In this document: positions 6,440 through 63,983 of the stretch, in pieces
How positions within the stretch are numbered: the stretch's first letter is position 1
Layout of the letters: every line of letters starts with the position of its first letter
Assembly: GCA_000004985.1 (NCBI GenBank)
Contig: GG738920.1
Direction: 5' to 3' (one strand)
Source: Naegleria gruberi
Lineage: Eukaryota
DNA length: 64,000 nucleotides
Program-made: the position numbers and the translations under genes
The notes under the pieces: generated by a model
Databases searched by the model: none
What the model was told of the DNA's origin: nothing
Seen by the model: only the letters and a program-made list of their open reading frames with translations

Positions 6440-7861
6440 CTATTTAATTGAGATATATAGGAGTGTGGTGAATGACAGCAAGATGAAAGCTAATCCAATT
6501 AATTTTCTCAATCCTTTTGTATTATCAAGAGAAGGTGTTGACAACTTGGTATTAGTTTCGGCTAATGGAGTAGTGGATACTTCTTTGATTTCCTTTGGAT
6601 GCTCCTCTTGTTCAATAATATTATTATCCCAAATTAGAAGATCCGTTAATTGTTTCATTTCTTTGATATATTTGGCTCCTTGGTTGCCAATAATATTAAC
6701 ACTAATATCAAGTGCGTTTAATTGTGACATTTCACTTATGTATTTGGCTCCTTTCTCATCAATGTGATTTTCACTTATATCGAGCTCAGTTAATTTCTCG
6801 AGTTTGGATATATATTTGGCTCCCTCTCCCCTAATATTATTTTTCCATAAAGTGAGAATTGTTAATTGTTTCATATTACCAATGTATTTGGCTCCTTCCT
6901 CTCCAATATTATTGTCACTAACATCAAGATTAGTTAATTGTTTCATCTCAGAAATGTATTTTGCTCCATTGTCACCAATATTATTGCTACTGATATCGAT
7001 TTCAGTTAGTTTATCAAGGCCAGTTAAGAATTTGACTCCTTCTGCTGTTAATTCATTCCTCCAAATGTTAATACCAGTCAATTGTTTCATTTTTCCTAAG
7101 AATTTGGCCCCCTCATCTCCTATATTATTGTCATGAATTCGTAGATAGGTTAATTGATTCATACCACTAATATATTTGGTACTATCATCATATAGCATAT
7201 TACTACTGATATTAAGATCAGTCAATTTATCCAGTTTGGAAATGTGTTTGATACCTTCTGAGCTAATACCACAATAAAAGATACAAAGATCTAACAATTG
7301 TGTCATTTCTCCTATGAGTTTGGCTCCCTCATCTCCAATACTATTTTGCCCAATATTAAGATGGGTCAATTGCTTCATTTCAACAATGTACTTTACCCCA
7401 TCCAATCCAATATTATTTTCACTAACATTAAGATGAGTCAATTGTTTCATTCCACTAATATATTTTACTCCTTCATTTCCAATATTATTACCCAACATAT
7501 TGAGAATAGCCAAATACTGCATTTCACTTATGTATTTAGCTCCCTCCTCATCGATATTATTTCCATCAATATCCAATTGAGTTAATTGTTTCAGCAAACC
7601 AAGTTTTTTACAATCAAAAAGAGGATCACTTTGCTCTACTTGTAGAGTTGTAACACGTTCCAATAATTGGCCTTGTATTTTCTGGTAACTTTTAATGGAT
7701 AGTGAAAGTTTTGATCTTTCCGATATGACCTTGAACCACTGTTTCGAAACCAATACACAATTGAGTACTATGGACATGTTTACAAATGTTAAATCTTCGT
7801 GAAGGAAAGAAAATATTTCCTCTAGAATGTCATCAGGAAAGTAGACTTGCAGTTTATTCAT
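6440..7861 (-). CDS. F-box-like protein with ribonuclease-inhibitor-type leucine-rich repeats (about 16 x 24-aa NNIGDEGAKYIxxMKQLT units) and a C-terminal hydrophobic anchor.
   Basis: The ORF at 6440..7954 uses a TTG as 'M'. The first ATG is at 7861 (MNKLQVYFPDDILEEIFSFL, F-box-like). There are regular 72-nt/24-aa LRR units. The C-terminus reads LIGLAFILLSFTTLLYISIK. Confidence 0.6.
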   Translation of the reverse strand: MNKLQVYFPDDILEEIFSFLHEDLTFVNMSIVLNCVLVSKQWFKVISERSKLSLSIKSYQKIQGQLLERVTTLQVEQSDPLFDCKKLGLLKQLTQLDIDGNNIDEEGAKYISEMQYLAILNMLGNNIGNEGVKYISGMKQLTHLNVSENNIGLDGVKYIVEMKQLTHLNIGQNSIGDEGAKLIGEMTQLLDLCIFYCGISSEGIKHISKLDKLTDLNISSNMLYDDSTKYISGMNQLTYLRIHDNNIGDEGAKFLGKMKQLTGINIWRNELTAEGVKFLTGLDKLTEIDISSNNIGDNGAKYISEMKQLTNLDVSDNNIGEEGAKYIGNMKQLTILTLWKNNIRGEGAKYISKLEKLTELDISENHIDEKGAKYISEMSQLNALDISVNIIGNQGAKYIKEMKQLTDLLIWDNNIIEQEEHPKEIKEVSTTPLAETNTKLSTPSLDNTKGLRKLIGLAFILLSFTTLLYISIK

Positions 7862-8000
7862 TTTTTTAATAATAAAATTAATAGTTTCTGTTAAATATAT
7901 AATCAAATTAGAATATGCACCGTTGTAATATATTGTTCTGCCAAATTCCACCAATGTTAAATAATTAATGAGTCAATTTCGATGGAATTGTTCTTAATTA

Positions 8001-33536: not shown

Positions 33537-33863
33537 TTTTCAAAAAATTATTATTTTACAGCGAACGATGAAACTCTATTTTTTTTTGATTGGAAATTTG
33601 ATGATGACAATTATTTCAATCAATTTTTATTTGATTTTATTGTTCTGGTGAAGTTCATCTATTACAATTCAATCAAAGTTTAATTAAACTATTTTAATCG
33701 GATCTTGATGGAATCAATCTATTTGATCATGGTGTGTTTCATCATAAAGATCTTGACACTACTGACACAACCCATGTGAGATTACTTCATACTCGGAAGC
33801 AAACATGTCTCAGTCTCATTAGAAGCTTAATAATCTCCTGCTTCTTCTTACTTGCTGTTAATC

Positions 33864-34760
33864 ATGAATTTTGGAAAAAGTCCTTCGAAAATTCCTCCAA
33901 CAAGATTCCAATTCAACTCGAAAAACTCCTTAAAAAAAATGAGCAAACATTCCAACACTGAAAAATATCCGCTTCTCACAACTACTTCACAACATGCCTC
34001 CACACTTCGGAAATCGATTTACTACAAGCCAAGCTCAAAGGAGAGCAAATCTAATCGAAGGTCTTTATCAACAAGAGCAAAAAATTCAACACTGATTAGC
34101 AACACTAATTCATCAGATTTTCAAATTAGAAGAAATTCGAATGAAATGTTTTCTAATGATATTCTATGGGAAATTTTCTCATATCTTTCGATAGAGAGAA
34201 TTGAATTGCTGGATTCTATCGATTCTAAAGTGTTGGTTTCCAACTTGTCAGCTCTTGCCAAGTTGGGCTCTGCATGTCAACAATTCAGAAATGTCATGAA
34301 TGAGAGCAAATGTTGGGATGTGCTGTTCGAGCATTATGTATTTTTCTGCAGTGGAGAATATCATGGTTTGGCAAATCCAATGCTGTATTACAAGGCCCAG
34401 AGAAACAAGTTTGGAGATATGATATTGACATCCTGTCAAAAGAAACATTTCGTCATGTATGGAATTATGTTTGATTATATACGAAAGAGGCAATTATTTT
34501 CATCTCAATTCATGTCTGGATTAGTCAACAAGACCATCCATTCAATAGATTTCAAACACTACCCTCAGAGAAATATCATTCGAGCAACCAAATCAAGTAA
34601 CTCTCATATTGATCCATTATTTGCAAAGAGATGCCTTAGAAATCGAATAGAATCTCCAGAAAATAATAAGCAGAATCATGAAGTTTCACCAATTACTTCC
34701 TTCTCAATGAGGATTTTGTGTGGTTCAATATGTGGTGCGATTTTTTCTCCTTATGCTTAA
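33864..34760 (+). CDS. F-box-like domain protein (about 298 aa), hypothetical.
   Basis: An F-box-like motif is present (NDILWEIFSYLSIERIELLDSIDSKVLVSNLSALAKLGSACQQFRNVMNESKCWDVLF). The ORF's listed start is a TTG. The first ATG is at 33864. Confidence 0.45.
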   Translation: MNFGKSPSKIPPTRFQFNSKNSLKKMSKHSNTEKYPLLTTTSQHASTLRKSIYYKPSSKESKSNRRSLSTRAKNSTLISNTNSSDFQIRRNSNEMFSNDILWEIFSYLSIERIELLDSIDSKVLVSNLSALAKLGSACQQFRNVMNESKCWDVLFEHYVFFCSGEYHGLANPMLYYKAQRNKFGDMILTSCQKKHFVMYGIMFDYIRKRQLFSSQFMSGLVNKTIHSIDFKHYPQRNIIRATKSSNSHIDPLFAKRCLRNRIESPENNKQNHEVSPITSFSMRILCGSICGAIFSPYA

Positions 34761-40500: not shown

Positions 40501-41110
40501 CTACTTATTAAGTGATGTCAATTGTTTCATATCACTTATTGATTTGACTCCTTCATCACCAATTTGATTGTAATTAATACTAAGTGATGTTAATTGTTTC
40601 ATTTCACTTATTGATTTGGCTCCTTCTGCACCAATTCGATTGTTTGAAATATTAAGTGATGTCAATTGTTTCAATTCACTTATTGATTTGACTCCTTCAT
40701 CACCAATTCCATTGTTTGAAATATTAAGTGATGTTAATTGTTTCATTTCGCTTATTAATTTGACTCCTTCATCACCAATTCCATTGTTTGAAATATTAAG
40801 TGATGTCAATTGTTTCAATTCACTTATTAATTTGACTCCTTCATCTCCAATTCGATTGTAATTAATATTAAGTGATGTTAATTGTTTCATTTCACTTATT
40901 GATTTGACTCCTTCTGCACCAATATCATTTAAACTTATATCAAGTGATGTCAATTGTTTCAATTCACTTATTAATTTGACTCCTTCGTCACCAATTCGAT
41001 TGTTTGACATATTAAGTGATGTCAATTGTTTCAATTCACTTATTAATTTGACTCCTTCATCACCAATTCCATTGTCAGAAATAATAAGCGATGTTAATTG
41101 TTTCATTTCA
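40501..41110. repeat. Tandem 72-bp repeat array (about 8.5 copies, roughly 90% identity) encoding the LRR units of the F-box/LRR gene.
   Basis: Repeated units ttaagtgatgtYaattgtttcaWttcacttattRatttgactccttcatcaccaattcSattgtttgaaata occur at 40507, 40579, 40651, 40723, 40795, 40867, 40939 and 41011. Confidence 0.8.
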
Positions 41111-41505
41111 CTTATGAATTTCGCTTTTTCTATCGAGCCAAACAACCATGCAGAAAATTTAACATTAACAATACTATTCATAAATTGACTGTTCATGAAT
41201 AATTCAATTCTTTTCTCTGTAAATTTCTTTTTAAATTGAATAACAAGTTTTGAACGTTCCTTGATCACATTAAAGAATTGTTTTGAAATCAAGGAACAAT
41301 TATTCAAAATAAACCACGAATCATCAATCATGGAAATTATTTCAAAACAAACATCATCTGAAAATATTTCCTGTTCGAGTTTCACAACTTTTTTTGCCTT
41401 CTCTTCCAAACTCTTATTATGATTATTAAAATCGATCGTGAGTAGTTGTTCCTCCGAATTAATTAATTGATAATTTTCCAAATCTTGTCTCTTTCGTTTG
41501 CTCAT
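40501..41505 (-). CDS. F-box-like protein with RI-type leucine-rich repeats (about 334 aa), a paralogue of the gene at 6440..7861.
   Basis: The first ATG at 41505 gives MSKRKRQDLENYQ...DDVCFEIISMIDD (F-box-like). The C-terminal region has about 8.5 near-identical 24-aa units (LTSLNISNNGIGDEGVKLISEMKQ). Confidence 0.55.
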   Translation of the reverse strand: MSKRKRQDLENYQLINSEEQLLTIDFNNHNKSLEEKAKKVVKLEQEIFSDDVCFEIISMIDDSWFILNNCSLISKQFFNVIKERSKLVIQFKKKFTEKRIELFMNSQFMNSIVNVKFSAWLFGSIEKAKFISEMKQLTSLIISDNGIGDEGVKLISELKQLTSLNMSNNRIGDEGVKLISELKQLTSLDISLNDIGAEGVKSISEMKQLTSLNINYNRIGDEGVKLISELKQLTSLNISNNGIGDEGVKLISEMKQLTSLNISNNGIGDEGVKSISELKQLTSLNISNNRIGAEGAKSISEMKQLTSLSINYNQIGDEGVKSISDMKQLTSLNK

Positions 41506-41667
41506 TTTTTTGATATCTCCAAAATCAAATATCAAGAAAGCGAGATGATGTTTTAGCTTGTTAATATCATGGAGATTGTTTTTGTTGAATCGGATGATGA
41601 ATTTGCAAATCAAGTTTCCTCTTTGTTTCAATTTACAATGAGCATTCTCTAAACAACTTTAAAAAAA

Positions 41668-46000: not shown

Positions 46001-46073
46001 GAATGGTACTATTGGGTGGTATAATGATAGGATCACCCTCTCCACCAAAGAGTGAAGAAGTGGTTAATGGCAT
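43020..46073 (-). CDS. OSCA/TMEM63/CSC1-like cation channel of the DUF221/RSN1_7TM family (1017 aa). These channels are described as calcium-permeable and gated by stress.
   Basis: It has N-terminal TM helices, a cytosolic RRM-like domain starting PYVVVVKGLPREM and ending GVAYLIFKNTSHVKD...PTDINWYTV (matching the AFVTF...APEPxDIiWeNL pattern), then a 7-TM C-terminal domain. Confidence 0.5.
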   Translation of the reverse strand: MPLTTSSLFGGEGDPIIIPPNSTIQVNFNIAGAGGVLTTLVANILIALLYMLLFFLCCRQLSLFNPRKKKKLFDEYMRDLEEEKAHQQANEEEDSSHHSQQQQQHVENSNNEYYTSASTITNQITSAYQEVSNQYPFNQIPKLPSEPTEMKKHLLGRLKIVILEAFNSTILFFPTMLAHFREGIVSFFVPSKAKQERKKMMALYGKDIVIYLYFQQIILYIMLVCSILACVVLLPIHLSGNPPIFEYSMNNSSSSFNYLPSSDDISLYSNSDVLQKGIKPIKNLTQEDNILLRTTVEMVIDSPVALYAHVVVGIISICVGLFFFFHFVFHEVVVENQSREEIVHQEDSNIISSQKDGLFEIFQETDSTSIAIHNKEKSIDPKEIISPYVVVVKGLPREMTNLKDFESFVEIYFNDNLKVDHEDSKILRSVLIYDFINRLTMSAILKHIEEDLDHFIHLKLERGEELLSLKEHVIFDEGVVDSKNVLSHCFGVHTHGKKINMLNTEEAIQHLETRKRLIRKEVSKWDASYNQLLHTKNREIPKVNSIDSFDDSSFMEDIQIEDTKAEETNNNDPISSIFVNNEGISSSGVAYLIFKNTSHVKDVLGRYLNNEIRLQNNVITIHPLDQEPTDINWYTVCRSSGLTGSRYEGIATNIMIHLFLVLFFIVASSPASILSAIQSLFNVGVVDMDIQKIQRATGIVGSIFFQFLPSFFLYWISRLIGFVISKVTMLGKYDSNQEYKRIYLLRKYFYMVLTILVMPSLWLSSMDGIVNYIKTEENFQEMLANIFLPASGALMVSTAIQYALIGNLDDLIRTEDAFWYIWKTKLSPYRKAKSPLEKLRAATDQFYFSVDTNYAKILAVFTLCMCYSVFIPIILPCGLFYMMMKHWIDRYLLQEIYTAPAGYNLDIIDNKPKGIDFISIQKKVILVVKVFIIALSMSAWFLIVFFGLRVYTTAAFLPHLIISIVVFVLLVCLLYLIHHNEDKIIRKRVMSQVEKQNHEVFHHFATNTAFCTPFEKK

Positions 46074-49300: not shown

Positions 49301-50786
49301 TCAGTCCAAATGCTTCACCTATTTCATTCTTTTCTGTAAAAATTGAATTGATTGTCAAGCTGTCATCACTCAATGTTGAATAAAACTTTCGTGACAAGTA
49401 CAATCTGAATGTGGCAGAGGTTGCTTCAACTCTCAAATAAATGGCTGTGTTACTCGATCCTGTGCAGTCTAATTGCTCTGATGGAACAACCAAGAATAAT
49501 CGAGACCCAATAAAATCTTTGTCAATGAACGAAATCTTTTTTTGTTCCATTGTCTTGTTGGAGAGAATGAATAAACTTCCAGAAAATGCACTAGATGCAA
49601 TCAAGTTCACTTGAAGCCAACAATTGTTTGAATTGAATGGGCTTTGTGCTTCATGAATGAAATACGACAAATCTGAAACTTGACTCTTCACAACCATGGA
49701 TGGATTTGAGCTTATTTCTGAATTGGTTGAAACTTGCTTGGTTTGGAAAATTGAATATGAAAACGATTTTGAATTATCTGATGAATTCATTTCCTCAACA
49801 AAATCATTCGATGAATCAACTGATATGTCAATGGAAGAGGAAACAGATGTCTCACTTTTCGATCCATTCAATTTGAAATTTACATCAAATGTCAATGTTT
49901 CCAAATATGATAAATTGACATTATAAAGTGTGAATGTCATCTTTGAGGATGATACTGTGCTATTCTCAATTTCAGGATAAATGTCCACTATGTTGGAAGA
50001 AGAAATCTTTCTTATACTCTGCAATGAAACTAGTGATATTGATAATATTGAAGAACTTATGGTAATAGTGATATTGACAGCTGGATCAATGGCCTTATTA
50101 TTGACTACAATTGGAATATTGGCAGAATCTGTCATATTATTTACAAAAAGTCCATTGAATGGTTCAGATTTGACTTGATTATATGAAGAAGGAGTAAGAA
50201 AATTAATTGAACTGCTATTTGATGCTAACACCAAATCAACAATTGTTGTGTCATTTGTAACATAGCAAAAACCCAACTTGACTTGAGTCATAAAGAGTGA
50301 AACTGTTGGATTTGCATTTCGTGTTGTAATTTTGAAAGTATTGATATCACTTAAATTCAAATAAGATGTAATTGCTTGACTATTCAAATCTAAACTAAAG
50401 GTTGATCCGTTACAAAAGGAATAGGTTGGTAATGGAAGATTCATTATGAAAATATCATTGATTAAAACAGATGTTGTGTGTTGATATTGACTATTTGATG
50501 TTGGGGAGAAGACGTACTTGGCTGTTACTGTCAAACCACTTCCAAGAATGATCTTTCCTTTGGTTGTGTATGGAAATGTTGCAACAAGATCCAGTGTATT
50601 TAATACCTTATATGCAGAGGTTGAACATGTAAGATCAGAGGCCATATTTTTGCTATCAAAATACGAATCCATCACTATTGAATCGGTACACATCTTTTTT
50701 GCCATTATAACCGACTGTTGGCAACACAAACAGGTCAACAACAGTAGCGTAAACAGTTGGACGAAACTTGCTGAGTTTCCTTTCAT
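46362..50786 (-). CDS. Large Ser/Thr/Asn-rich secreted or membrane glycoprotein (1474 aa). It has a signal peptide, a long ectodomain, four predicted TM helices and an Arg/Glu- and Pro-rich cytoplasmic tail.
   Basis: The N-terminus is MKGNSASFVQLFTLLLLTCLCCQQSVIMA. It has many N-x-S/T sites. TM helices occur near residues 1010-1200. The tail contains RREREAMERIDREERLRREREARNQ and then PPVPPITSS...PPPKP. Confidence 0.5.
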   Translation of the reverse strand: MKGNSASFVQLFTLLLLTCLCCQQSVIMAKKMCTDSIVMDSYFDSKNMASDLTCSTSAYKVLNTLDLVATFPYTTKGKIILGSGLTVTAKYVFSPTSNSQYQHTTSVLINDIFIMNLPLPTYSFCNGSTFSLDLNSQAITSYLNLSDINTFKITTRNANPTVSLFMTQVKLGFCYVTNDTTIVDLVLASNSSSINFLTPSSYNQVKSEPFNGLFVNNMTDSANIPIVVNNKAIDPAVNITITISSSILSISLVSLQSIRKISSSNIVDIYPEIENSTVSSSKMTFTLYNVNLSYLETLTFDVNFKLNGSKSETSVSSSIDISVDSSNDFVEEMNSSDNSKSFSYSIFQTKQVSTNSEISSNPSMVVKSQVSDLSYFIHEAQSPFNSNNCWLQVNLIASSAFSGSLFILSNKTMEQKKISFIDKDFIGSRLFLVVPSEQLDCTGSSNTAIYLRVEATSATFRLYLSRKFYSTLSDDSLTINSIFTEKNEIGEAFGLTISTINKLESIPLLTNLTFVNDDSSTDKFIAFNTLKSPSIELMSQMKGSSVPKNQFPNAQLSSKNFLYFFETRCQLCTVNLTLSYPTLFSNPSTISLKVAGSQNQAKASVSNGVHWLFLDTSKVTSDTVRLFVRATVKGLPRYNQPSKLSLIGTQDFIDNSLNSNGATRTIQSNELYNQTLNCNSSNIASPYEAQISLLTPTTGIKGNIWKFGLFIDPSLQYSQITFYYYAANYTNNVFGTNAKNYLSTLSGDFYYTLNVDRTYLISSDLTINLDSRLGIFDRSYEVYAKIGQKPTTTDYDMKISDLSFKNSSKVYSLRYSFSNTGTFSLQESNFRLISPSKLDMIGQQIYLFFREIPGSIVTNAYSCYLSSNIYFEHSYTPTVRYNSESAIDLKYPNLYLNASSLNISQSTIDKYINVEFTTSYAIPNDENVFLVDWTTSELIPMNKTLFNYYDVTYYNYKYQQSFTKLNARMKITQEMVDSKTFLFFSMIFPSTTNSKYTSNYAYVFVEEDAQVQPETLPILITLGVMGGLFIVSVLYLVLCLFLIYNGALKDPSISANYDASLNAFKKGSGMTVFYDLVLLLGPALSSILEKLTKKKVHTIVSNLILGFVCLFCSVAFYVGLLISMGVGIATLSNTESDIIPNGAQLGNATYYTCCKYRAPSSITTYATIMDTQDRTLSCIKYSSSSTYPSNMTINGVLYQPSITKNNFTMGSIATAKLRCPNSEIIFLNTSFDQIQALGISGLVLGTIFLFLTVLFLGTALADYLIKKSVNDQWIFKSIFATKSARQHHNITTHSNASTAPHSDTDSEENRRNHTIQVDNSVSRMQEENLRREREAMERIDREERLRREREARNQLFATNTSSTIPPVPPITSSSTINIPPDVKLPPPKPNQATHVEMTEFSNNSTTSATNNNQQPSAPPVSNEENHSNILIYDNSSDTRNYHVNPTSSVYNPYENSEDIVVVYQRSDQKNPQSQ

Positions 50787-52113: not shown

Positions 52114-53703
52114 CTACTTTTTCTTTTTGTTAGGATAGGAGGAAGAAAAACTTCCTGATCTCTTTGGTTGGTGTGTAATTAGAGAAGATGAAGCTTGTGT
52201 TGGTTGCTGTTGAATGATGGGAGTGTTTGATAGTAAATTCTCCAAATAATTCAGGGCATCCTTAGTTTTGCTGCACTGTTCGTAAATGTTTAAACGAGGA
52301 TTAGAGATCTTTTGAATAATTACACTTGCAGTCCTCTGGTTCGTCTCGAAAGTAATATAAGAGAACAATCCAGTTACTGAATGTAGATTTGTTTCAATGT
52401 GAGATCGTAATAGTGGCATAGTTCTGTGTAGTTCATATTTCTTTGATGCTGGATTGCTGTTCTGGAGGAAATTATTAATATCTCTGCAATTTGAACAATT
52501 AGTTTCACATACAAAGGTTGGAAGTGACCAGTCCCTTACGTCAGCTTTTTCTTGAATATTGAGAATTGATTTAATAAGCTCAATACTACAGGTGACAAGT
52601 TGAGCAAATGCTTTAACATCAATGAATGCACTCTTACCATACGTAATCTCAATATATTTGATGAGAGGAATAAGTATTTTGGCAACTCCAACAAAATCTT
52701 TAATTTTTGAAGTGATTGCTGACGTAACTTCTGATAATTCATTTGGAAAATTGCAATAGCAGATAGCTGAAATAATGGCCTTGCAATTTTCCACACTAAT
52801 ATCATCCGTTATGAACTGATTAATTATCCTTTCTCTAAGTTTCAATAGCATGACATTGGCAACTTCATGATCACCAAGTCCATTCAAGTGAATGACAAAT
52901 TTAAGGGAAGTATTCAAATCCATTTCTGTTATAATACCTTCCAAAAAGTTTTTAACTTCCTCACAAAAGAAATATTTTAGATAGTAAATAATAACAGTAT
53001 AGTACCTTAAAAATTTTTCCTTATTTCCCAATAATAGATTCAATGCTGAAACCATATATGAATGATAATTCTCCAAGTATTTCAATATTAATGATAGTTC
53101 AGTTTGATCTACGACCATACAACGCTTAATCATATAGACAGAAGTACTCTCCATTAGAGGGACAGCACATAATTGCATGCAATTCAATATTCTTTCTACA
53201 GCATAGGGCGAAAGATATCCTGTGGTTGATAAATATTCAAATACATAGTCACACAGGTCTGATGTAAGAGTTGAGTTTTCCTGTAGTAAAATAGTCTCAA
53301 AAGCAAAATCAAATATCATTTTGCTACTGAGATTAGATGTTATAAATTTGAAGAATGGTTGTTTGAAACTATTCATAAATCCAAAGGTGCTTATTAGGTC
53401 TTGCCATGATTTTAAGCATAAATGTTTGTTTGAAAATTCAGTAGCTATTTCATCATTCTTCAATTTAAGTACAGCATTTAGAAGGGCACTTTCTTGCAAC
53501 CAATTAGTCTTCATCATTTCCAATATTTTATCTACATTCGCCTTGTTTGGATTTTCAAGTTGATCATCTACCAACATGTCAAAATATTTATGCTTGCAAT
53601 TACTGTCCAAAAAACGCAAAGCATTAACATAATTCTTCTTTGGAATAATTGCTAAGCAAGAACGAGAATGATATCTTGAAAGTTTGTTAGAAATTTCAAT
53701 CAT
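52114..53703 (-). CDS. Helical hypothetical protein (529 aa). It is probably the 3' part of the same gene as 53704..55290.
   Basis: The ORF starts at the ATG immediately after the TAG of the upstream ORF, in the same frame. It has a C-terminal KKKK. Confidence 0.4.
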   Translation of the reverse strand: MIEISNKLSRYHSRSCLAIIPKKNYVNALRFLDSNCKHKYFDMLVDDQLENPNKANVDKILEMMKTNWLQESALLNAVLKLKNDEIATEFSNKHLCLKSWQDLISTFGFMNSFKQPFFKFITSNLSSKMIFDFAFETILLQENSTLTSDLCDYVFEYLSTTGYLSPYAVERILNCMQLCAVPLMESTSVYMIKRCMVVDQTELSLILKYLENYHSYMVSALNLLLGNKEKFLRYYTVIIYYLKYFFCEEVKNFLEGIITEMDLNTSLKFVIHLNGLGDHEVANVMLLKLRERIINQFITDDISVENCKAIISAICYCNFPNELSEVTSAITSKIKDFVGVAKILIPLIKYIEITYGKSAFIDVKAFAQLVTCSIELIKSILNIQEKADVRDWSLPTFVCETNCSNCRDINNFLQNSNPASKKYELHRTMPLLRSHIETNLHSVTGLFSYITFETNQRTASVIIQKISNPRLNIYEQCSKTKDALNYLENLLSNTPIIQQQPTQASSSLITHQPKRSGSFSSSYPNKKKK

Positions 53704-55290
53704 CTACACATACCTAAAATTAGCTTTAACCAGGAACCTATCATCATGATAAACATGAAAACCATCATTCTCAAAATCGTTAATACGATCAAACGGAATT
53801 ATTATTGAAATATCTGAAACTTTGATCTCCTTAGAAAATATTTCATTTCCATTCTTCAAATATTCAATGGTATAAGTAGAATACGAGTTTTCCAAATCCT
53901 CACTGTCAACATCGTCGAGATCACTATTTTCATAATTTCTTCCTCCTTCATTTTGAAGACGTTTATGACGTTTCCACTCCTGCACACTCATACTTGTAAC
54001 ATCACCTGATTTAGATTTGTGCATATTACCCAAGCATAGGTAGAAATTATTATGTATAGAGTTGTAATTACGTAACCAGTCATAGATAACAGCATCGTTT
54101 TCTTTCAAATTACTACCATCACTCAATTCATGTCTCGAATATTGTTCATTCAAAATATAAATAATGTAGGGAGTTTCTGATTCCCACTCATTAAGTGTTT
54201 TGCTCAGGTAGTTCAGTGTCATTTCTGCAGCATTGGCAGCTGGCATTAGATAATATGGCCCATTGAAAATAACATTATACACCAAAGCCAATCTTAATCC
54301 ACTTGTCAAAACATTTACCTTAAAATCACTCTCATGATAGAAAGCAACGTAGGATGTGGAATAGTGAGATTTTGATGAGTTTGGATAGAAATTTTCATTT
54401 GATTTGTATTTCACACTCATCTCTCCACCTGTATAGACAGAAGGAAGATAGACAACTAGAGTGGCAAACATCTTGTCCTCCTTTTTGTGATCTGAATGAA
54501 AATCGTATTGTCTTTCTCCTTCGAATAACAATAATTTGCTGAGCTTGACTATTACTTCCTTACCTGCTCCAACTCCTAATCCTTGTTTGATTTCCTTTTG
54601 TAATAAATTATTAATCATATCATTCCAATTAGGATTGGTAATTTCAAATTGATTTAATTCCAATTGCCATGGTTTAGTTTCTTCATTCATTGTGGTGAGT
54701 TGAATAATGTCATTGGCTTGTTCCTTCGAAGCAAATGGAAGTGAAATATTCCTTCTCTCCACCACAACATTCGTGTCATTTGACACTAGTAATTGCAAAC
54801 CAATAGCTGGATAGATGTCAAACTCTCCTCCCACAGAAAAGTTTCCCTCTAAAACATCAGGTACCAGTTCTGACAATATCTTGTCCATTCGTTTTGTGGT
54901 TTTTGATGGATGATAGTCCTCTTCTTCATCAGAGGTGAGGAAATAAATTTCATCATCGGAATCGTCTTCACTATCAGCTTTATCATTGTGCATGATCTCC
55001 TCATCTTCATCCGATGAATTAATTTCCATCACATTTTCAAGATTAGTTACTTCTTGATCATTCTGTGAATCATCATCTTCGGTAATATCGATTACTTCAT
55101 GTCCTTTGATACTCTCTATTACTGATGAGGCAGCAGCTCCAGTAGCAGCATTACTCGAAACCTCTTTTAATTGAATTGTGTTGATGATCATGTCCTCTTG
55201 TTGATCAAAGCAAAAACTTTCAACATCTGAATTTCCTGATGATAAATCTTCATCTAATAGAGGAGAATTTGGTGTGGTTGCTACCAACAT
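53704..55290 (-). CDS. 2OG-Fe(II)-oxygenase-like protein (the N-terminal 528-aa ORF). It is probably the 5' part of a longer gene that continues into 52114..53703.
   Basis: The N-terminus is acidic and Ser-rich. The core is DFHSDHKKEDKMFATLVVYLPSVYTGGEMSV, which is HxD ... GG(E), followed by YHESD and GLRLAL, a P4H-type double-stranded beta-helix pattern. It terminates at a TAG directly abutting the next ATG, in the same frame. Confidence 0.4.
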   Translation of the reverse strand: MLVATTPNSPLLDEDLSSGNSDVESFCFDQQEDMIINTIQLKEVSSNAATGAAASSVIESIKGHEVIDITEDDDSQNDQEVTNLENVMEINSSDEDEEIMHNDKADSEDDSDDEIYFLTSDEEEDYHPSKTTKRMDKILSELVPDVLEGNFSVGGEFDIYPAIGLQLLVSNDTNVVVERRNISLPFASKEQANDIIQLTTMNEETKPWQLELNQFEITNPNWNDMINNLLQKEIKQGLGVGAGKEVIVKLSKLLLFEGERQYDFHSDHKKEDKMFATLVVYLPSVYTGGEMSVKYKSNENFYPNSSKSHYSTSYVAFYHESDFKVNVLTSGLRLALVYNVIFNGPYYLMPAANAAEMTLNYLSKTLNEWESETPYIIYILNEQYSRHELSDGSNLKENDAVIYDWLRNYNSIHNNFYLCLGNMHKSKSGDVTSMSVQEWKRHKRLQNEGGRNYENSDLDDVDSEDLENSYSTYTIEYLKNGNEIFSKEIKVSDISIIIPFDRINDFENDGFHVYHDDRFLVKANFRYV

Positions 55291-55488
55291 TCTCTGATCG
55301 CCAATACTAAACCCAACTTCAGGTGATGATGCAGAAGTTTCCTTGCTGGTTTTCCTTTTGCATTTTTTAAAAAAAGATTAAAAATTAAATTTGTTAAAAT
55401 GTAACGGTTAAATTTTAACAACAACAATTTTAGGTAAATGACATATCTGACTCATTCCAATTTTTAACAATTCTACTGTGAAATTGTT

Positions 55489-58023
55489 TTATTGCTTACA
55501 CCATTGATTAAAAGATTGCTCCTCCCTTCCGAATAATCCATGATCAAATCCATATTTGATAACTCTTTCAATTATTTCGGAAAATGTGCTGTCATCAGAG
55601 TAGTGCTCTAATTCACTCCATAACATTTCAAAGTTGTCCTTTCCAACGATGATTTGTTTCGATACAATGGGTATTAAATCTTTCATTTCGTGTTGGTGAG
55701 CTTTCTTGATGAGTGGAATTTGATGAATTGAGGGAACATAGTTCATGAATCCATAACAATATTGAATGAGATATTTCATCTCTGGACCATATTCTTCCAG
55801 TTCAATGGACCAATTTCCTTCGAATAGAGTTTCAAAGTAGACACTTCTCGAGATGAGAACTGTTTTGTGGCAATGAATTTTCTGATTTCCTACTAGGAAA
55901 CAAATATCACTGGTTGAGTGGTCATTGAATAGGTCCATTAGTGGTGATTTGGAAATATTGTTTGGCTTTTCTTCCCAAGTTACTGGTTTGATAGTTTTTC
56001 TCTTGATGATTAATCTCAAATACTTGTCAACTCTTTCATCAGTTTCAATAAAGAATTCGTATCCAGGTTCTGATGCCTGACTTCCCATGAAATCCAAACA
56101 ATAGTCCTTAATTTTCATCAAAGGAGAAGCTGCTGATGTTGATGAAAAGAATGAAGCATCTCTTGTGAGATAGCTTTCAATAGATTCCAGAATATCCAAA
56201 ACATTATCGAATCCAATTTTTGTAATCACTGATTGAATAATCATTGATTTCATGTAAATTAAATCTCCATGAGCTTGACCAAGTAAAAAGAGAATGCAAA
56301 GACTTTCGTCTGTATCCATATTCGATAATGTGGAATGTTTTTGATAGAGAATTTGATCCAAAATTCTCTGAACTATAGAGCATTCCTTCTCGTTCAAAGA
56401 GCTAATGAAATTATTATTCGAAATAACATTCTTATAGAAATTAGGAGTCATTCGTGCAAGAAGTGGTCTAAAGGCAATCAATCTATCAAATCTATCCATT
56501 TCAAGTTTCCGTACAGAAATATTATCTTCAAAGTGCCAATAATTTACTGCATCCGAAGCAAAATCTCTATTCATATGATCCACCAATGCCTGCTTTCTCA
56601 ATTCCTCCAAATCTATATTCTTCTTTTTGCAAATATTCAATATAATAGAGTCGACAGAAGCTTTGGCATGGAGCAGCAATTTGATAATGTTCCAATGCTC
56701 AAGAGTGCAAGCAATTAAAAGAGGTGTCTGTTATTATTGTGGTTGTTATGGTTGTGGTTGTTTGGAGAAGAGATGCAGTTGATGATGAAGACGGTTAATA
56801 GCGATGTTAAATTGTGTGGCAACTTACTTTCTGTGTTGTAGTGAGCTGTGCGTCAGTGTTGCTGAGATACTTACATACTGTGAAGTTGTGGAAATGTGTA
56901 AAAAGAACCAAATATTACAAATGCACTTACTATCTAAAAAAGTAAAGTCTAGACTGTTGGTGATGCGAAACTTACAAGCTGAAAAATGATAAGAACTTTA
57001 GTTTAGAGATTCCAAAGGAGCAACATACCATATTCATCTAAATTCCCAAAACCTTTTAACCATCAAACTTCATTGCTGGAATACTTACTGTCTGAGGCAA
57101 GTCAGTTAACACACAATATTTCAATATTGGTACTTACTTCCTATGTGTTGTGTAAGAATCTTTAAACTGTATCCAATACTTACATGCTGGCAAGAGTGTG
57201 AATTAATTGTTGCTCCAACCTGAATTACTACTTACCCACTATTAAAATAATGATTGATTATCCATTCGTTCCTAGCTGGTTAAAATAATCTACACTTACA
57301 TCGAACTATTCCATTTAGGATAAACTACATTAGTTATGGTGCCTACTTACAAACTGGAACAATGTGTGAAAATAATGGATTGGAATCTCTCTTAATACTT
57401 ACCCCTTGATTAACGTCTGTGCGATTACAATCTAACAACATTCTAACCAATTCTTCATTTCCTCTTTGACAAGAGACACATAGAGGTGTCTTTTCAAATG
57501 CGTTTGGAAATTTGATATCCAAAGTGTTTACTTACTTCCTATGAACGTGTCAATGAAATTTTAACTTCTGAATCACTTACTTCCTACAAGCACATAAGTG
57601 ACACAAGTGTTTCATCATGATCATCACAATAACTGATTAATAATTATGATTAGAATTAATTCACTTACCATCTAGATGATATTCAAGCTTTTACAACATT
57701 TTCGTTATCTAAATAACTTACAAACTATTTCAGAATGAGTTGACAAAATTCTTCTCAATACTACTTACTCCAATATTTGTATTTAAATGAGGAATCTTGA
57801 GTAAATTATCAACGAGTACTTCCTGTTCCTGTTCACAGGCCCAATATAATAATGTCTTATCCTGTAAATTCTTCAGTGGTTTATTAATCATCCATCTATC
57901 CTCCACAAGAGATGGCGGAAGTTTGCAATTCTCTAAAACCGATTCAATCATCATTAGACTATCTTCCCTCTGTGTCTCAGAAGCAGAAGTTGTGAACGTG
58001 GCCTGTAAAGTGGAGCTGTTCAT
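55489..58023 (-). CDS. Ankyrin-repeat plus BTB/POZ protein with an unusual architecture. Clear exons are 58023..57769 (exon 1), 57489..57403 (an ANK repeat) and 56727..55489 (BTB). Numerous candidate micro-exons lie between them.
   Basis: Exon 1 has the ATG at 58023 and reads ...TLLYWACEQEQEVLVDNLLKIPHLNTNIG. The 87-nt exon reads TPLCVSCQRGNEELVRMLLDCNRTDVNQG. The last exon begins TPLLIACTLEHWNIIKLLLHAKA and ends in a BTB domain (DICFLVGNQKIHCHKTVLISRSVYFETLFEGNW). All three exons are in phase 0. Between them there are 17 GTAAGT/GTATGT donors. Confidence 0.5.
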
Positions 58024-58460
58024 TTTGTTTTTTTGGAGCTTTAACGAGCGAGATGGCCACTTTCACTTTTTGTGGCGCGAGGAAAAAGATGAATTCAATG
58101 CCAACAACAGCAACCTTGAAGATGTGATAAGGGCGCTGTATATTGAGACAATTTCAAGTTGAGGAAATTTCCTTATGAAGAGGTGTGAATAATGGTCTGT
58201 TGGAATGAGGGTATGAACTCTCACAAAGTTTTCCTGACGTGGCAGTAAGCTGTGTGAAAAAAATGGTCTGATTAGAAGCCAGTAAACAGAATTAATTTTG
58301 CATTTTACTGTTTATTTTAGATACTGTTTAACTATTGACCTCTTCAATTAGCAAATGGTGTTGCTCCACTATCCAGAGTCAAAATATATTCTTCAGAATC
58401 AAGATGACTCAGAAATCAACGCACGAAAGTACAATCTCTACAAATATAAGCAAAATTATT

Positions 58461-58531
58461 TGCATTAGCCGGGAGTCGAACCCGGGTCACCAGCTTGGAA
58501 GGCTGGTATGATACCGTTACACTACTAATGC
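58461..58531 (-). tRNA. tRNA-Gly (anticodon TCC).
   Basis: The reverse complement reads GCATTAGTAGTGTAACGGTATCATACCAGCCTTCCAAGCTGGTGACCCGGGTTCGACTCCCGGCTAATGCA. It has a 7-bp acceptor stem, anticodon loop CTTCCAA, T-loop GGTTCGACTCC and a downstream T run. Confidence 0.85.
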
Positions 58532-58599
58532 TCGTTATTAAGCGTATTAAGGAATAATCATCTTTCCTTACACTACAATTAAGATATTATTGTTTTAAT

Positions 58600-61500
58600 T
58601 TATTGATTCAAATGCTTTAGTGCATCAAAGCCTATAACTGCAAGAAAACCAGAACCTACCAATGCTGGAATGACTGTATAAATATACATGTGATAATAGG
58701 CAATCACAAGTGGCCAACCAATCCATATAATAGTAATTGGCATTAGTATTAATTGTCCTAAAATTCCCAAATTTTTACAAAATCTTCCACAAGACTTGAG
58801 TAACCCAACGTAAATATCTGTTAAAATACTCATTCCTACTGAAGCATTGAAATAGGATCTGTATGCATGTATACTTTCCAGTGAAACAAAACCATACCAG
58901 AATACACAGTATCCCCAAGCAATAATAAATAACAAGATATTGATCCAATAGAATATTCCTGACTCTGCTATCAATACAAAAGACAATAACCAAAACACCC
59001 AACCTAACACAAAATCTTGAATGTAGAAGGTATAAACATGTAAAATAAATACATAGTAAAGAATTGGAGAGATGTTGTAAAGGTTACTAACAAGTGATGA
59101 AGACCACCCACCAATACTACCAATGCTCATTACAGTTTTACAAACAAGTACTCTTATATCAAAATAGAAAGGACTGAATGCAACTGAAAATCCATAGAGA
59201 ATTATTCCCACAGAGCTAAGAACAGAAGCAATACCAAGGAATACACTTGTTGCGTACTTCTTTCCATAAAAACTTCTATAGTTCCACAGTTGGAAGTCCC
59301 TATCACCCCACCATCTATACCCTAAGAATGGGAAAACATCCATTAGGTTGAAGAGTTTTTCAGTTAGGGAAACCAACAACATGAATAGGTTGATTGGAAT
59401 TAACAGTACCAAGAACTCAATTCTATCCCATGTCATATCACTTTCTATTCCTTCAACGTGTGAGAAGAGGCTAATGAGATAATAGAACGGATAAAGAACC
59501 AATCCCAAGAGCTTGTATCTAATGAAGAAAAGCTTGTAGATGTGTTCTATGACATGTTGTGTTTCAGCCTTGACAATATGATGGAAACCAGCTTTGTAGT
59601 CATCATTGACAGCATCCTCAAAAGTGTACTGCTTGTATGAGTAACGACTCTTTTTTTCTAGATATCTCTTGATATACTCATTTCTATTCTCAGAATCTGA
59701 AGCAGAGAAGGCCTTCTTGAAAACAGATGTGAAATCTTCATTCTTATATGATCCAATAGCACTGTAGTAAGCTTCATTCAAGTTGATATTATTGTAATAG
59801 TGGTAAGAGTTATAATTATTGGTATTGTTATACTTGGCTTGGAACTTTTTGTCAATCAAATTTGCCTTCTTATCAATATCGAGATACAATTGCCAAAGGA
59901 AGGAATCCTGTCTTGACAATTCGTGCCAATGTTTACAGACACGATCAAAGCTTGCTGCATTTTCTTCAGGGGTGAGGTAAGTCAAAATTTCAAAGAACAT
60001 ATCACTTGGTAATATCTCACCATTATCCTCACTTGTGTTTTTGGTTTTTGATTTGGTGGTTGAGAATGGTTTTGTTTTCATGAACGCCATTAAATGCTTA
60101 ATACATGCAACTGTGAAGAAATACAATCTCTTGACAGTGTAAGGGAATTGATAAACAAATGTAAGATTAATAAATAAAGCTGCAAGGCAAATGATATCCA
60201 AAATAGCACTCTTGAATTCAATCCACAATGTTCTTCTAACACCTTCCTTTAGCATCAAGTATCTGTACACAACGAATGGTATTCTCCAGAACATTACCAA
60301 TAGAGCAATACCAAATACAAGAGTCAGCAAATCAACAAGTGTCTTGGCAATTAAAACTCTAAGTTCTCTTCTTCTTTCTTCATCTCTGTTCTTCCACTGT
60401 TCATAGAGGAAAAGATATTTGAACATAAAGTAAACTCTATATGGAATAACAATACAAGTACATAGAGAAATTATAACAAGTGGAATATCAATGATTAATT
60501 GCAATGCCTGATCTCTAATAAATTCTCTATATCCTCTCTTAGATTTCTTCTTTGAAAGGAAGTGATAAAGCTCAACATTTCTGTAAACAGACAACACAAC
60601 TACCAATGTGAGTAGCATGTATGGTACATCAAGTATAATTTGACTAAGATGGTATCTAATAATTCCTCTTCTTCCCTTAGCTGTTTCTTCGATCCATGCT
60701 GATTTCAGTGCATTTGGAATTCTCCATAAAAGAAGTGGAATAAGAGCTATGTGAATTATGTCGAGAATGAGTTCGTAAAATTCCAAAAGAATGGAATAGT
60801 GAGCTTCTGATAGCTTTCCTGAAACATAAGCAGCAGTAATGATATTTACAACTCGCTTCGATCTCCAGGATACCAATAGCAAGGCTGAACATAAAATGCA
60901 AGGAATATCTAGGACCGTTAGGAAAGCGTTAGTTCCCAATAGGATTAATCGTTTCTTATAGTCTGTTTCGTTTGCTAAGGCTCTTAATATATGTTTGATT
61001 CTCCAAACAGTGAGGGATGAAAGAAGGAATAAAATAATTATAGGAATGTCTTTAACTAGATTCCAAAAAACGAGAGCTATTTGTTTGTGGACTTCCAATG
61101 CTTCTCTGATAGCAAATGTAGATTTGAAAACAGGATGTGTCTTGAGAACAGCAACTAAATCCTTGATTCTATAAACTGTGAGAACAATAATTGCAGAAAA
61201 TACAGTACAAATCAAATCCAAAGGAATTGATAAAGCTTGAGAAACAATTACCTTGGCGGCCAATTTCTTTGGTTCCTTCTGCCCAACAAGAGACTTCATA
61301 GTTGTGACAGTAATTGGAATACGGTAGACTGTGAATGTTACCAAATAAGTGCAGATAATTAATGGGATTTGGAGAGGAAGCAAATAAAGTTGCTTTAACA
61401 CCTTTCCTCTAAAGAAGGTGAATAATTCTCTCTGCTTACCCAACTCTTTTTCTTCCTTCTTTGCCTTTTTGTATTTTCTAAATAAGAGGAAGATAGTAAA

Positions 61501-63401
61501 GATGTGCATGATGGAGAGTATCATTAAAACTAGAGAAATAGTAAATGGGATATCTATCATGGCATCCAAAAATTGTTGAAGAGCTAATTTTCTTCTCTTT
61601 TCTGCAGTTTCATATTCTTCTTTATGGAATACCCAAATCTTGAGAATAATTACTGGTAAACGCCACATTGACAGCAAACCCAACAAAATAAAAGGTAAAT
61701 CTTTCAAGACTGCAAAAGCTTCAGAAATAATAATAAATTGATAGAGAGTGTCTTCTGTTCTTATTCTCTTAATAGTTGTACCTACTCTGTAAAGAGTTGG
61801 AACGACAAGGACTACCATTGCAGTTATTGCTACCACATCAAGAATACTTTGTACAAATTCTTCCATGGCCTTGTTTCTCATACTTCCCGCCTTTTCTTCA
61901 TTGGTAATGATGGTAAGATAGTGTAGAATAATTCTTGGAATTCTCCACAATGACATAATTCCTAAACAAATAAAAGCAATATCAATAATCCAATTTTTGA
62001 AAATATCCCTAATAAGTTCTCTTCTCTGAATAAAAATTTCATTTCCAACAACCTCTACCTTATCAAGTTCATCGCTATCACTATTTGAAAAGAATTTCTC
62101 ATCATAAAAGACATCAATAAATATGGAAGAGTAAAGATGGGAAGCTCTCCAAAAGGTAACAAATATTGGAACACATAAAACTATATGCATAAAATCCAAT
62201 ACCATTTGAGAGAACATGTACAAGCTAGTTGAATGGAAGTATAAGAAATTACCCTTCTCAAAGAGCTTCTTTTGTTCGGATCTAGTAATTTCCCATCTGT
62301 ATCTGGTTACAAATAATGTAATGAATGCCAATAATGAAGGCAAATCAAGGACCAGACAAATAAATTGTTCGAATGTGATTACTCTCATAGATTTAGTTCT
62401 CTTTTCATCTCTATATTGTTGAATTATTGGAATAAATCTATAAATGGTGATTGAAAGACAAAGACCTAGAGCAATAAATGGCATGTCAATAAGTACTTCT
62501 ACACAATGTGAGAAACAGTAAATAGCTCTGTCAAACCCTTCAGCTGGTTGTTCTTTGAATCCTTTGATAAATCCCTTAATTCTATAAAATCCAATAATAT
62601 TAAATAGAATACTCAAAGCATATGCTGGTATTTCCATAAGAATATAGCATCCATTTCTGAAAAATAGTTCGTGTGTCCATTTTTGGCTCCAAACATGAGG
62701 AATTCTCCACATGGTAACTGCAATCAATAACTGATAATTCAAGTTAAAATATTTAAAAGTCAAACAATAATACATACACAAAATGGCAAGCATAAATAAT
62801 CTAACACTGCTTTAACAGTATAATCAGCCATTAAATCAGTAAATGCAGATAATGTTTGAGATTTGTATCCTTGTTTTAAAAAGTATATGAATCTGACAGG
62901 ATTTACCAACATTACAATAGAAAATAAATGTTTAGGCAAACGTATTTGGAATTCACCCCAATCAGAGAAGATATCTACATTACTATTACGATAGCTTCTT
63001 CCAATCTTGTCATCCCACACAATGAAAGCTCTAATTGACATGGCCAACATGGACAAGAAGGTGACTGTCAATGAAATCATCATACTCCAAAAACCTGTAG
63101 AATTTTCCGAAATGTAAAGAGCATAAGTTTCATAGAATGCAAATATTGGATACAAAACAATGGATGGTACTGCAAGTGTAACGATCGGATACATGACTGG
63201 AAACATTAAATAATAGATCAACAATACACCATTATTAAAGTCTGAGTATAAACGCTTTCTACTTCCATAATTATGTGAAATATCCAATGCCAATGTGAGT
63301 AATAATAATGCTGGTGAATAAAAGAGGCATGATACAAAATCAATTACTATTAACCCCAATTTGAGGGCTATTCTCAGTAGAGTTACCACTAACAACTCCA
63401 T
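58600..63401 (-). CDS. Very large polytopic membrane protein (about 1584 aa) with an embedded F-box domain and about 12 internal helix-D[IL]P...[WY]R[IV]P repeats. Two exons: 63401..62778 and 62730..58600, with a 47-nt GTATGT...CAG intron.
   Basis: The two track ORFs are in different frames and join across a 47-nt intron as ...DYLCLPFC|LLIAVTMWRIPHVW. The F-box reads EILPSDMFFEILTYLTPEENAASFDRVCKHWHELSRQDSFLW. There are repeated TM-plus-WRIP motifs (LWRIPRIILHYL, MWRLPVIILKIW, LWRIPNALKSAW, FWRIPFVVYRYL ...). ATG at 63401. Confidence 0.55.
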
Positions 63402-63707
63402 TCCGATATGATGATGATGATGTTGTAAACAGTAATAAAAATAATCAGCTAATGATGGGTGCTGATTTAAAAGATACCAAGCATCTGTCTCTGATAATTT
63501 TTTTAAGTGGAAGAAAAGTTCATTCAGCTGTGGTAACCTTTTGGGAACACCAAAAACTAAAACGAACAGAGAACTAACACGTAAAAGAAGAACATTTAAA
63601 AAATTAAAAGATACAATACTAAGCGAAACTGCATTGAAAACATTGATCTATTTTCTTTCCATACACATGACGTCAATTACAAAGGAGAAAAGGAAGATTA
63701 ATTTACT

Positions 63708-63983
63708 TTACATGAAACTAGTTTCAGAATTATTCATAGCTGCTGATTGTTGTCTTTGTGTTAAAATACGCTTAAATCCTTCTATCAAGTTTGGATGTTC
63801 ACCTTTGAATATTATGTTAACATTATCTAGAGTTTGTTGGGCTGATTGTTGTTGATTGTTAAGCAGTTTGATTTGTTGTAAGAAATCAGCAAATTGTCTA
63901 TTTGTCAAAACTTCTTTAGCTTGCTTAAAGAATTCCTTGCCTTCCAAAGCTTGAGCTTGTTGTGATTGAGTTTGTTGTTGCAT
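63708..63983 (-). CDS. Small Gln-rich hypothetical protein (91 aa).
   Basis: An ATG-initiated ORF with an in-frame stop immediately upstream. It is Q-rich at both ends with no clear motif. Confidence 0.25.
   Translation of the reverse strand: MQQQTQSQQAQALEGKEFFKQAKEVLTNRQFADFLQQIKLLNNQQQSAQQTLDNVNIIFKGEHPNLIEGFKRILTQRQQSAAMNNSETSFM

Follow-up and report, generated by a model that had tools for sequence, protein, structure and literature searches.

Among the substrate receptors of Skp1-cullin-F-box (SCF) ubiquitin ligases, Skp2, FBXW7, beta-TrCP, and FBXL17 carry an F-box followed by a large C-terminal domain. Proteins of the Skp2, FBXW7, and FBXL17 type are soluble and have WD40, leucine-rich repeat (LRR), or other globular substrate-binding domains. 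To our knowledge, every characterized F-box protein is either soluble or in no more than peripheral contact with membranes. Here, we analyzed a 64,000-nucleotide (nt) stretch of the Naegleria gruberi genome from contig GG738920.1 (the window) and followed up a gene at positions 58600 to 63401, for which an earlier reading of the letters alone (the original prediction) had proposed an F-box between two multi-helix membrane blocks. This arrangement held. Like the SCF receptors above, the encoded protein has its F-box ahead of a large C-terminal domain. Unlike canonical F-box proteins, it carries the F-box more than 1100 residues in, after ~22 predicted membrane helices and ahead of ~7 more, and has no known substrate-binding domain. 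The F-box itself is a known module; an F-box within a protein of ~29 predicted membrane helices is, as far as our searches reach, an undescribed architecture.

F-box and Skp1 function at a membrane surface is known from Mdm30 and Mfb1 of yeast mitochondria, from Rcy1 on endosomes, and from prenylated FBXL2. These proteins are peripheral or lipid anchored, not polytopic, and we know of no sequence relationship between them and the Naegleria protein outside the F-box. The polytopic RING ligases Hrd1 and Doa10/MARCH6 of endoplasmic reticulum quality control are comparable only under the mechanism proposed below, where a multi-helix membrane domain would pick membrane substrates and a cytosolic module would recruit the ubiquitination machinery. 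The ligase module is a RING in those proteins and would be an F-box/SCF module here, and there is no similarity in sequence or fold; Hrd1 gave a nonsignificant Foldseek match to our repeat model (E=9.7, TM-score 0.16). Piezo blades, as in this protein, reach a very large number of transmembrane helices by tandem repetition of a membrane unit.

One gene with a canonical F-box

The gene lies at 63401..58600 on the minus strand. Two minus-strand open reading frames (ORFs), 63401..62760 (213 amino acids [aa]) and 62793..58600 (1397 aa), overlap around a short intron. Splice reconstruction placed this intron at 62777..62731 (GTATGTATTATTGTTTGACTTTTAAATATTTTAACTTGAATTATCAG; 47 nt, with the form GTATGT...TTAAC...CAG), and the upstream ORF ends at an in-frame TGA within it. 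Removal of the 47 nt restores a single frame for a protein of 1584 aa, in agreement with the predicted size of roughly 1580 aa. The resulting junction peptide (...LCLPFC/LLIAVTMWRIP..., with the slash marking the splice site) aligned without gaps to IPFALLILVTMWRVP in Naegleria lovaniensis and LPFLFIILVTTWRIP in Willaertia. Orthologues from N. lovaniensis (P0002, 51.8% identity) and Willaertia magna (P0162, 1606 aa, 43.5% identity) were both colinear with the start (MELLVVTLLR...), the splice junction, and the C terminus of our model.

The only database protein with 100% identity is NAEGRDRAFT_59810 (P0001), a public N. gruberi model of 2590 aa that covers 52114-63983 on the minus strand. It begins in an upstream Gln-rich ORF (63708..63983), follows our protein from aa ~425 to ~1413, and then exits into downstream genes, including a BTB-domain gene (55489..56679), thereby omitting the first ~424 and last ~170 residues. 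Because this model is a chimera, the gene is not correctly represented in the database. An error of this kind is what could be said for a gene-model artifact, with the F-box belonging to a separate gene or the locus being a pseudogene. We consider this explanation extremely improbable. A single unbroken frame of 1397 codons takes in repeats 2-18 together with the F-box and the C-terminal block; the orthologues are colinear from end to end; and complete-ORF transcripts from other protists (P0003, P0004, P0020, P0033, and P0038) have the same order of parts. The same three lines of evidence rule out a fusion of two genes. Transcription of the F-box as a separate gene had been named as an observation that would speak against the original prediction, and what the transcripts of other species show is the F-box joined to the membrane parts. 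Positions 58600-63401 are thus one real gene for a very large, predicted integral membrane protein, apparently present as a single copy in N. gruberi according to our homologue search.

The F-box occupies aa 1115-1155 (60012..59890, minus strand; LPSDMFFEILTYLTPEENAASFDRVCKHWHELSRQDSFLWQ), where the string quoted in the original prediction is found. It matched PF12937 with 29.7 bits against a gathering cutoff of 24.3 (E=5.3e-7), while PF00646 scored 19.8 bits, just below its cutoff of 20.5; scanning the isolated 205-aa segment gave the same Pfam F-box result as scanning the full protein. All of the signature residues are present (LP, EIL, L, VCKxW, and LW). The closest sequences in the Protein Data Bank (PDB) were the F-boxes of FBXW7, FBXL17, and Skp2; the alignments bring the signature positions LP, EIL, L, C-x-x-W, and L-W into register, and ILPSDMFFEILTYL...RVCKHWHEL...FLW aligned residue for residue with the F-boxes of FBXW7 and FBXL17. 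When the family profile was compared with the PDB, it matched F-box proteins only, and over the F-box only.

The F-box is conserved in N. lovaniensis and Willaertia. We then took 66 representatives of the wider family and scanned the 200 residues upstream of a conserved junction motif (described below) with Pfam. At this same position, 31 of the 66 matched F-box-like (best E=2.8e-15) and 23 matched F-box, and full-length scans of the Balamuthia and Soliformovum proteins, P0004, and P0011 concurred. Orthologues and relatives with the F-box come from Heterolobosea, Amoebozoa, Metamonada, and Euglenozoa, and the family consensus, IP.DVLGEILTFL....L..VCKKW..L..DD.LW, is that of a textbook F-box. 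The stop-free ORF, the transcripts from other species, and the matches in 31 of the 66 representatives mark the F-box as a real and conserved component of a single predicted integral membrane protein.

Repeat anatomy and predicted membrane helices

The protein consists, in order, of an N-terminal hydrophobic block, ~18 repeats of ~47 aa, the F-box, and a C-terminal hydrophobic block. Exon 1 (62778..63401, minus strand; aa 1-208) was delimited from the ORF list, the splice reconstruction, hydropathy, and the colinear N termini of the orthologues; it encodes the N-terminal block (aa 1-130, ~4 predicted helices), followed by a linker and the first part of repeat 1. The repeat array, defined by a repeat hidden Markov model (HMM), hydropathy, typing of A and B repeats, and the family consensus, follows at 60121..62831 on the minus strand (aa 191-1078) and is interrupted by the intron (62731..62777). 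Past the F-box (59890..60012) lies a low-complexity linker rich in Asn, Tyr, and Lys, recognized by reading the sequence (59602..59889, minus strand; aa 1156-1251), which varies in length and sequence among relatives. The C-terminal block (58603..59601, minus strand; aa 1252-1584) was delimited by a family alignment (A1), HMM matches, and profile hydropathy. It opens with the junction motif, G.xxI..E....I...Y/P.L...P.KLLG..L.P, continues with ~7 hydrophobic segments, and closes with G(E/Q)(I/L)(L/I)..P....W..WP. Among 161 family proteins, HMMs matched the junction motif in 82 and the C-end motif in 75.

Each repeat has an amphipathic N-terminal part, an Asp-x-Pro, ~14 residues that are all apolar, a Trp/Tyr-Arg, and a short amphipathic helix. 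An HMM built from the seven strict D-x-P...W/Y-R copies recovered the same seven and nine more; two further degenerate copies were recognized by eye, giving a total of ~18. Iterating a four-repeat query against relatives gave domain E values down to 1e-64. The D(I/L)P...(W/Y)R repeat noticed originally is therefore real and far beyond chance, although its number is ~18 (16 by HMM and 2 by eye) and not ~12. The proposed unit of one transmembrane helix on each side of the D-x-P had to be abandoned, as there is one hydrophobic core and one helix per repeat and the stretch before the D-x-P is amphipathic. In a Pfam scan of the full protein, the repeats matched no family and the F-box was the sole match; neither a profile search of the PDB nor a Foldseek search with the repeat model matched the repeats to a solved structure. 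This bears out the statement that the repeat fits no recognized family, and as far as our searches reach, the single-helix repeat bracketed by Asp and Trp-Arg is a new, undescribed membrane repeat.

To describe the repeat across the family, a double-repeat HMM was run over all collected family proteins, and 1234 double repeats were aligned. Their consensus is f...l.DlPf..l.l......WR.p.l...l..........rR......f...llD............t.wR.p.l., with D16 conserved in 76%, R32 in 86%, R52 in 65%, D65 in 84%, and R81 in 69%. The 14 columns from each Asp to the next Trp-Arg were apolar at every position and on every helical face, whereas ~12 residues ahead of the Asp and ~9 past the Arg had the periodicity of amphipathic helices. 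The apolar centre is ~14-16 residues long, or ~22 with the hydrophobic positions immediately preceding the Asp. A soluble solenoid of the HEAT, ARM, or TPR kind was rejected on account of the 14 consecutive columns that are apolar on all faces and the absence of Pfam solenoid matches; the hydrophobic helices of ordinary length in the N- and C-terminal blocks speak against it too.

Since a first AlphaFold2 run on aa 900-1584 was poor, we used the repeats as their own homologues: 54 four-repeat windows from this protein and its relatives were aligned to aa 748-936 (60547..61113, minus strand). The resulting model had a mean predicted local distance difference test score (pLDDT) of 94.3 and a predicted template modeling score (pTM) of 0.74. 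Helices were placed at residues 2-32/36-48, 52-81/85-98, 101-141, and 145-174/176-188 of the segment, so that each repeat forms a single helix of ~45 residues. In three of the four, a break or kink falls directly ahead of the Trp-Arg; the D-x-P breaks none of them. Turns of 2-3 residues join successive helices, which makes neighbors antiparallel.

If neighbors are antiparallel, R32 and D65 are equidistant from the connecting turn. We examined the joint loss of the conserved charges in 1121 nonredundant double repeats. Loss of R32, which closes one helix, was associated with loss of D65 in the helix that follows (odds ratio 12.7, p=1e-6), and the same held for R81 of one double repeat and D16 of the following one (odds ratio 37.7, p=8e-6). 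R52 and D16 were likewise associated (odds ratio 9.7, p=1.5e-12), while the Asp and Arg within the same helix showed no association (p=0.7). The simplest reading of these co-loss statistics and of the hairpin geometry, which are not measured distances, is a helix ribbon zipped by ion pairs between the Arg of helix i and the Asp of helix i+1 at both ends of the apolar centres.

By the Kyte-Doolittle scale, 57 overlapping 19-residue windows reached at least 1.6 and merged into ~29 peaks: ~4 in aa 1-130, one per repeat between aa ~194 and ~1072, and ~7 in aa 1280-1584. We therefore estimate ~29 hydrophobic helices in total, with ~4 N-terminal, 18 from the repeats, and ~7 C-terminal. Many of these segments are long and apolar enough for a bilayer; the original prediction had spoken of roughly 25 helices. 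Judged by these segments, the protein probably spans the membrane as a polytopic protein.

Family distribution and proposed mechanism

A first search returned the N. lovaniensis orthologue and a transcriptome protein of 2212 aa (P0003). Querying with P0003 added proteins 1500-3000 aa long, some from Acytostelium and Plasmodiophora and others from several EukProt and metagenome sources. These share a common order of N-terminal hydrophobic block, repeats, junction motif, and C-terminal block ending in G(E/Q)(I/L)L..P....W..WP, and each has between 9 and 46 loose matches to the repeat motif. A profile from alignment A1, which spans the F-box together with the last repeats on one side and the C-terminal block on the other, was used for an exhaustive search of 1.84 billion cluster representatives and matched 662 at E<=1e-3, 316 at E<=1e-10, and 78 at E<=1e-30.

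Named members belong to Heterolobosea (Willaertia magna), Amoebozoa (Pelomyxa schiedti, Balamuthia mandrillaris, Acytostelium, Cavenderia, Polysphondylium, Soliformovum, and Pyxidicula), Rhizaria (Plasmodiophora), Metamonada (Anaeramoeba flamelloides and Paratrimastix pyriformis), and Euglenozoa (the diplonemids Diplonema japonicum and Lacrimia lanifica). They are annotated as hypothetical or under obviously spurious names. Among the ~30 members that we looked up, a sample and not a census, none was from an animal, fungus, or plant. Literature searches on transmembrane or polytopic F-box families and on Naegleria F-box proteins returned nothing relevant on the family. Judging from these matches, the family is ancient and widespread in protists, with members in at least four eukaryotic supergroups. 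The lineage-specific expansion suggested earlier does not apply to this gene, because the gene is apparently single copy and its family is ancient.

Two relatives, P0009 and P0013, have RanBP2-type zinc fingers in their C-terminal regions, and one finger of P0009 carries a C-T-F signature, which we take to be typical of ubiquitin-binding NZF fingers. P0005 ends in a tail resembling a ubiquitin-interacting motif (UIM), LAIELSLAEE, and P0019 in a similar one; given how short the motif is, these matches are weak (E~0.08). Together, the fingers and tails lend mild, independent support to a connection with ubiquitin and hint at such a tie also in members without the F-box.

Many relatives, though not the Naegleria protein, also contain a conserved soluble domain of ~150 aa without a Pfam match, which reads ...GGIxxxxxGxKPxxxxIxxAxLxxxGxxxWxxLxxxxG....LYPxxLxPxYxxxxD...F.....G....xxEYG.... 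Its position varies: it lies past the last predicted transmembrane helix in P0005, P0016, P0018-P0020, P0023, P0027, P0030, and P0031, and in the middle of the protein in P0033, P0038-P0040, P0054, and P0010.

Our best reading is that the protein acts as a membrane-embedded Skp1/SCF substrate receptor, a proposal that we regard as just as apt to prove wrong as right. In this mechanism, the ~18 tandem helices of ~45 residues would cross the bilayer as a zig-zag ribbon, each with its 14-residue, all-apolar centre in the membrane, the Asp on the N-terminal side, and the Trp-Arg on the C-terminal side. The Arg of each helix would pair with the Asp of the next at the membrane interface. An extramembrane loop after the last repeat would bear the F-box, followed by the conserved block of ~7 helices. 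We infer that the F-box faces the cytosol, from what F-boxes do and not from the sequence, and there it could bring Skp1, and by way of Skp1 also Cul1-Rbx1, to the membrane. The transmembrane parts would then take the place of the WD40 or LRR domain of soluble F-box proteins and select membrane-resident substrates for ubiquitination. The prime candidate for substrate selection would be the C-terminal block, where conservation within the family is highest and which has the position of the substrate-binding domain of soluble F-box proteins.

Several observations weigh against this reading. About half of the family, including the dictyostelid and Plasmodiophora members, has no recognizable F-box, so the conserved core function would not strictly depend on it. 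The 17 inter-repeat loops are, with one exception, net neutral to positive and do not alternate between odd and even; because of this, the positive-inside rule gives no orientation, and there is room for a monotopic arrangement. The family hydropathy profile is ambiguous, with 6 to 8 helices between the F-box and the C terminus. The AlphaFold2 model of aa 900-1584, made from a nine-sequence alignment, was unusable (pLDDT 52, pTM 0.26), and it drew helices across the F-box region with a pLDDT there of only 39-51. Finally, some F-box proteins work with Skp1 outside SCF, as in yeast Rcy1, the RAVE complex, and Ctf13.

We also considered deriving the side of the F-box from the type of the preceding repeat and rejected this route. 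By eye, that repeat was of type A, which HMM typing contradicted (B-like in 19 of 21), and the alternation of types is too loose, being only a tendency (676 alternating versus 290 same-type neighbors).

In about half of the family, the membrane architecture is complete and the F-box absent, which suggests a core function independent of the F-box. Where present, the F-box could recruit Skp1 without a cullin, for which the non-SCF cases above are precedents, and Skp1 would then serve a membrane machine as a structural or regulatory component, with membrane shaping, scaffolding, or sorting as the work of the helix array. We hold this to be the strongest competitor of the SCF receptor, yet unlikely, since the RanBP2/NZF-type fingers and UIM-like motifs of relatives are more in keeping with ubiquitin chemistry than with a Skp1 that is purely structural. 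The loop charges and the shortness of the strictly apolar stretch (just ~14 residues) would also suit a hydrophobic solenoid that is monotopic or peripheral: the repeats would have all of their loops on the same side, and their apolar centres would reach into a lipid droplet or a single leaflet. This we rate as distinctly improbable, because the repeat model has long helices, straight or slightly kinked, with tight turns and no hairpins tipped by apolar residues. Moreover, Arg-Asp pairing on either side of each apolar centre fits two interfaces, and the terminal blocks have hydrophobic helices of ordinary length. Slightly less probable again is that the membrane part resembles a transporter, channel, or scramblase and that the F-box merely regulates the turnover of its own protein. 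Conserved polar and acidic residues inside the hydrophobic segments of the C-terminal block, such as an N-E/N-D pair and the W..WP motif, speak for it; our comparisons with transporter and channel families found no similarity in sequence or fold, which leaves the transporter-like option in the original prediction without that support.

Extending the SCF receptor proposal to the family is more speculative, and we offer it as a possibility that is rather more doubtful than the proposal itself. The family could represent an ancestral eukaryotic class of SCF receptors that recognize substrates inside the bilayer, with the Asp/Arg helix ribbon and the C-terminal domain presenting membrane proteins to Skp1-Cul1. 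Such a class would form a quality-control or sorting pathway parallel to Hrd1/Doa10, kept in many protists and apparently lost in animals, fungi, and plants. The arrangement of an F-box among ~29 predicted membrane helices is conserved across several supergroups, and if the membrane reading is true, it would mean that a polytopic membrane scaffold can have SCF-type ubiquitination built into it. The repeat deserves a family definition of its own, as it has neither a Pfam model nor a solved structural analogue. With hundreds of clusters at 50% identity, the family is a cell-biological puzzle and, being present in pathogen relatives (Naegleria, Balamuthia, and Plasmodiophora) and apparently absent from animals, a possible lineage-specific target.

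Other genes in the window

We searched a six-frame translation of the 64-kb window with an HMM derived from the F-box of the studied family and found three other F-box-like segments. One lies in the frame 7972..6443 on the minus strand (E=2e-5), which contains an LRR-bearing ORF (7954..6440); its own Pfam F-box match (E=4e-4) is below threshold. A second, also with LRRs, lies at 41658..40504 on the minus strand (E=0.01), and the third is in a 308-aa frame at 33834..34757 on the plus strand (E=3e-4). The first two of these segments are N-terminal in proteins rich in LRR_6. Three further F-box proteins in the window, as proposed originally, are thus reasonable, although all three matches are weak and score below the F-box studied here.

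Near the gene, 46362-50786 on the minus strand encodes a large protein of 1474 aa without a Pfam match at E<=0.001, and ORFs of 529 and 528 aa at 52114-55290 on the same strand likewise have none at this threshold. A 1017-aa ORF at 43020-46073 (minus strand) matches RSN1_7TM (E=2.7e-23) and RSN1_TM and is a homologue of the calcium-permeable stress-gated channels of the OSCA/TMEM63 type. At 38788-40293 on the minus strand, a 501-aa ORF consists of at least six DUF4116 repeats (E=8e-52). A 387-aa ORF at 23995-25158 (minus strand) has the shoulder domain of the major vault protein (E=4e-35) together with a vault repeat domain and is probably one exon of the Naegleria major vault protein gene.

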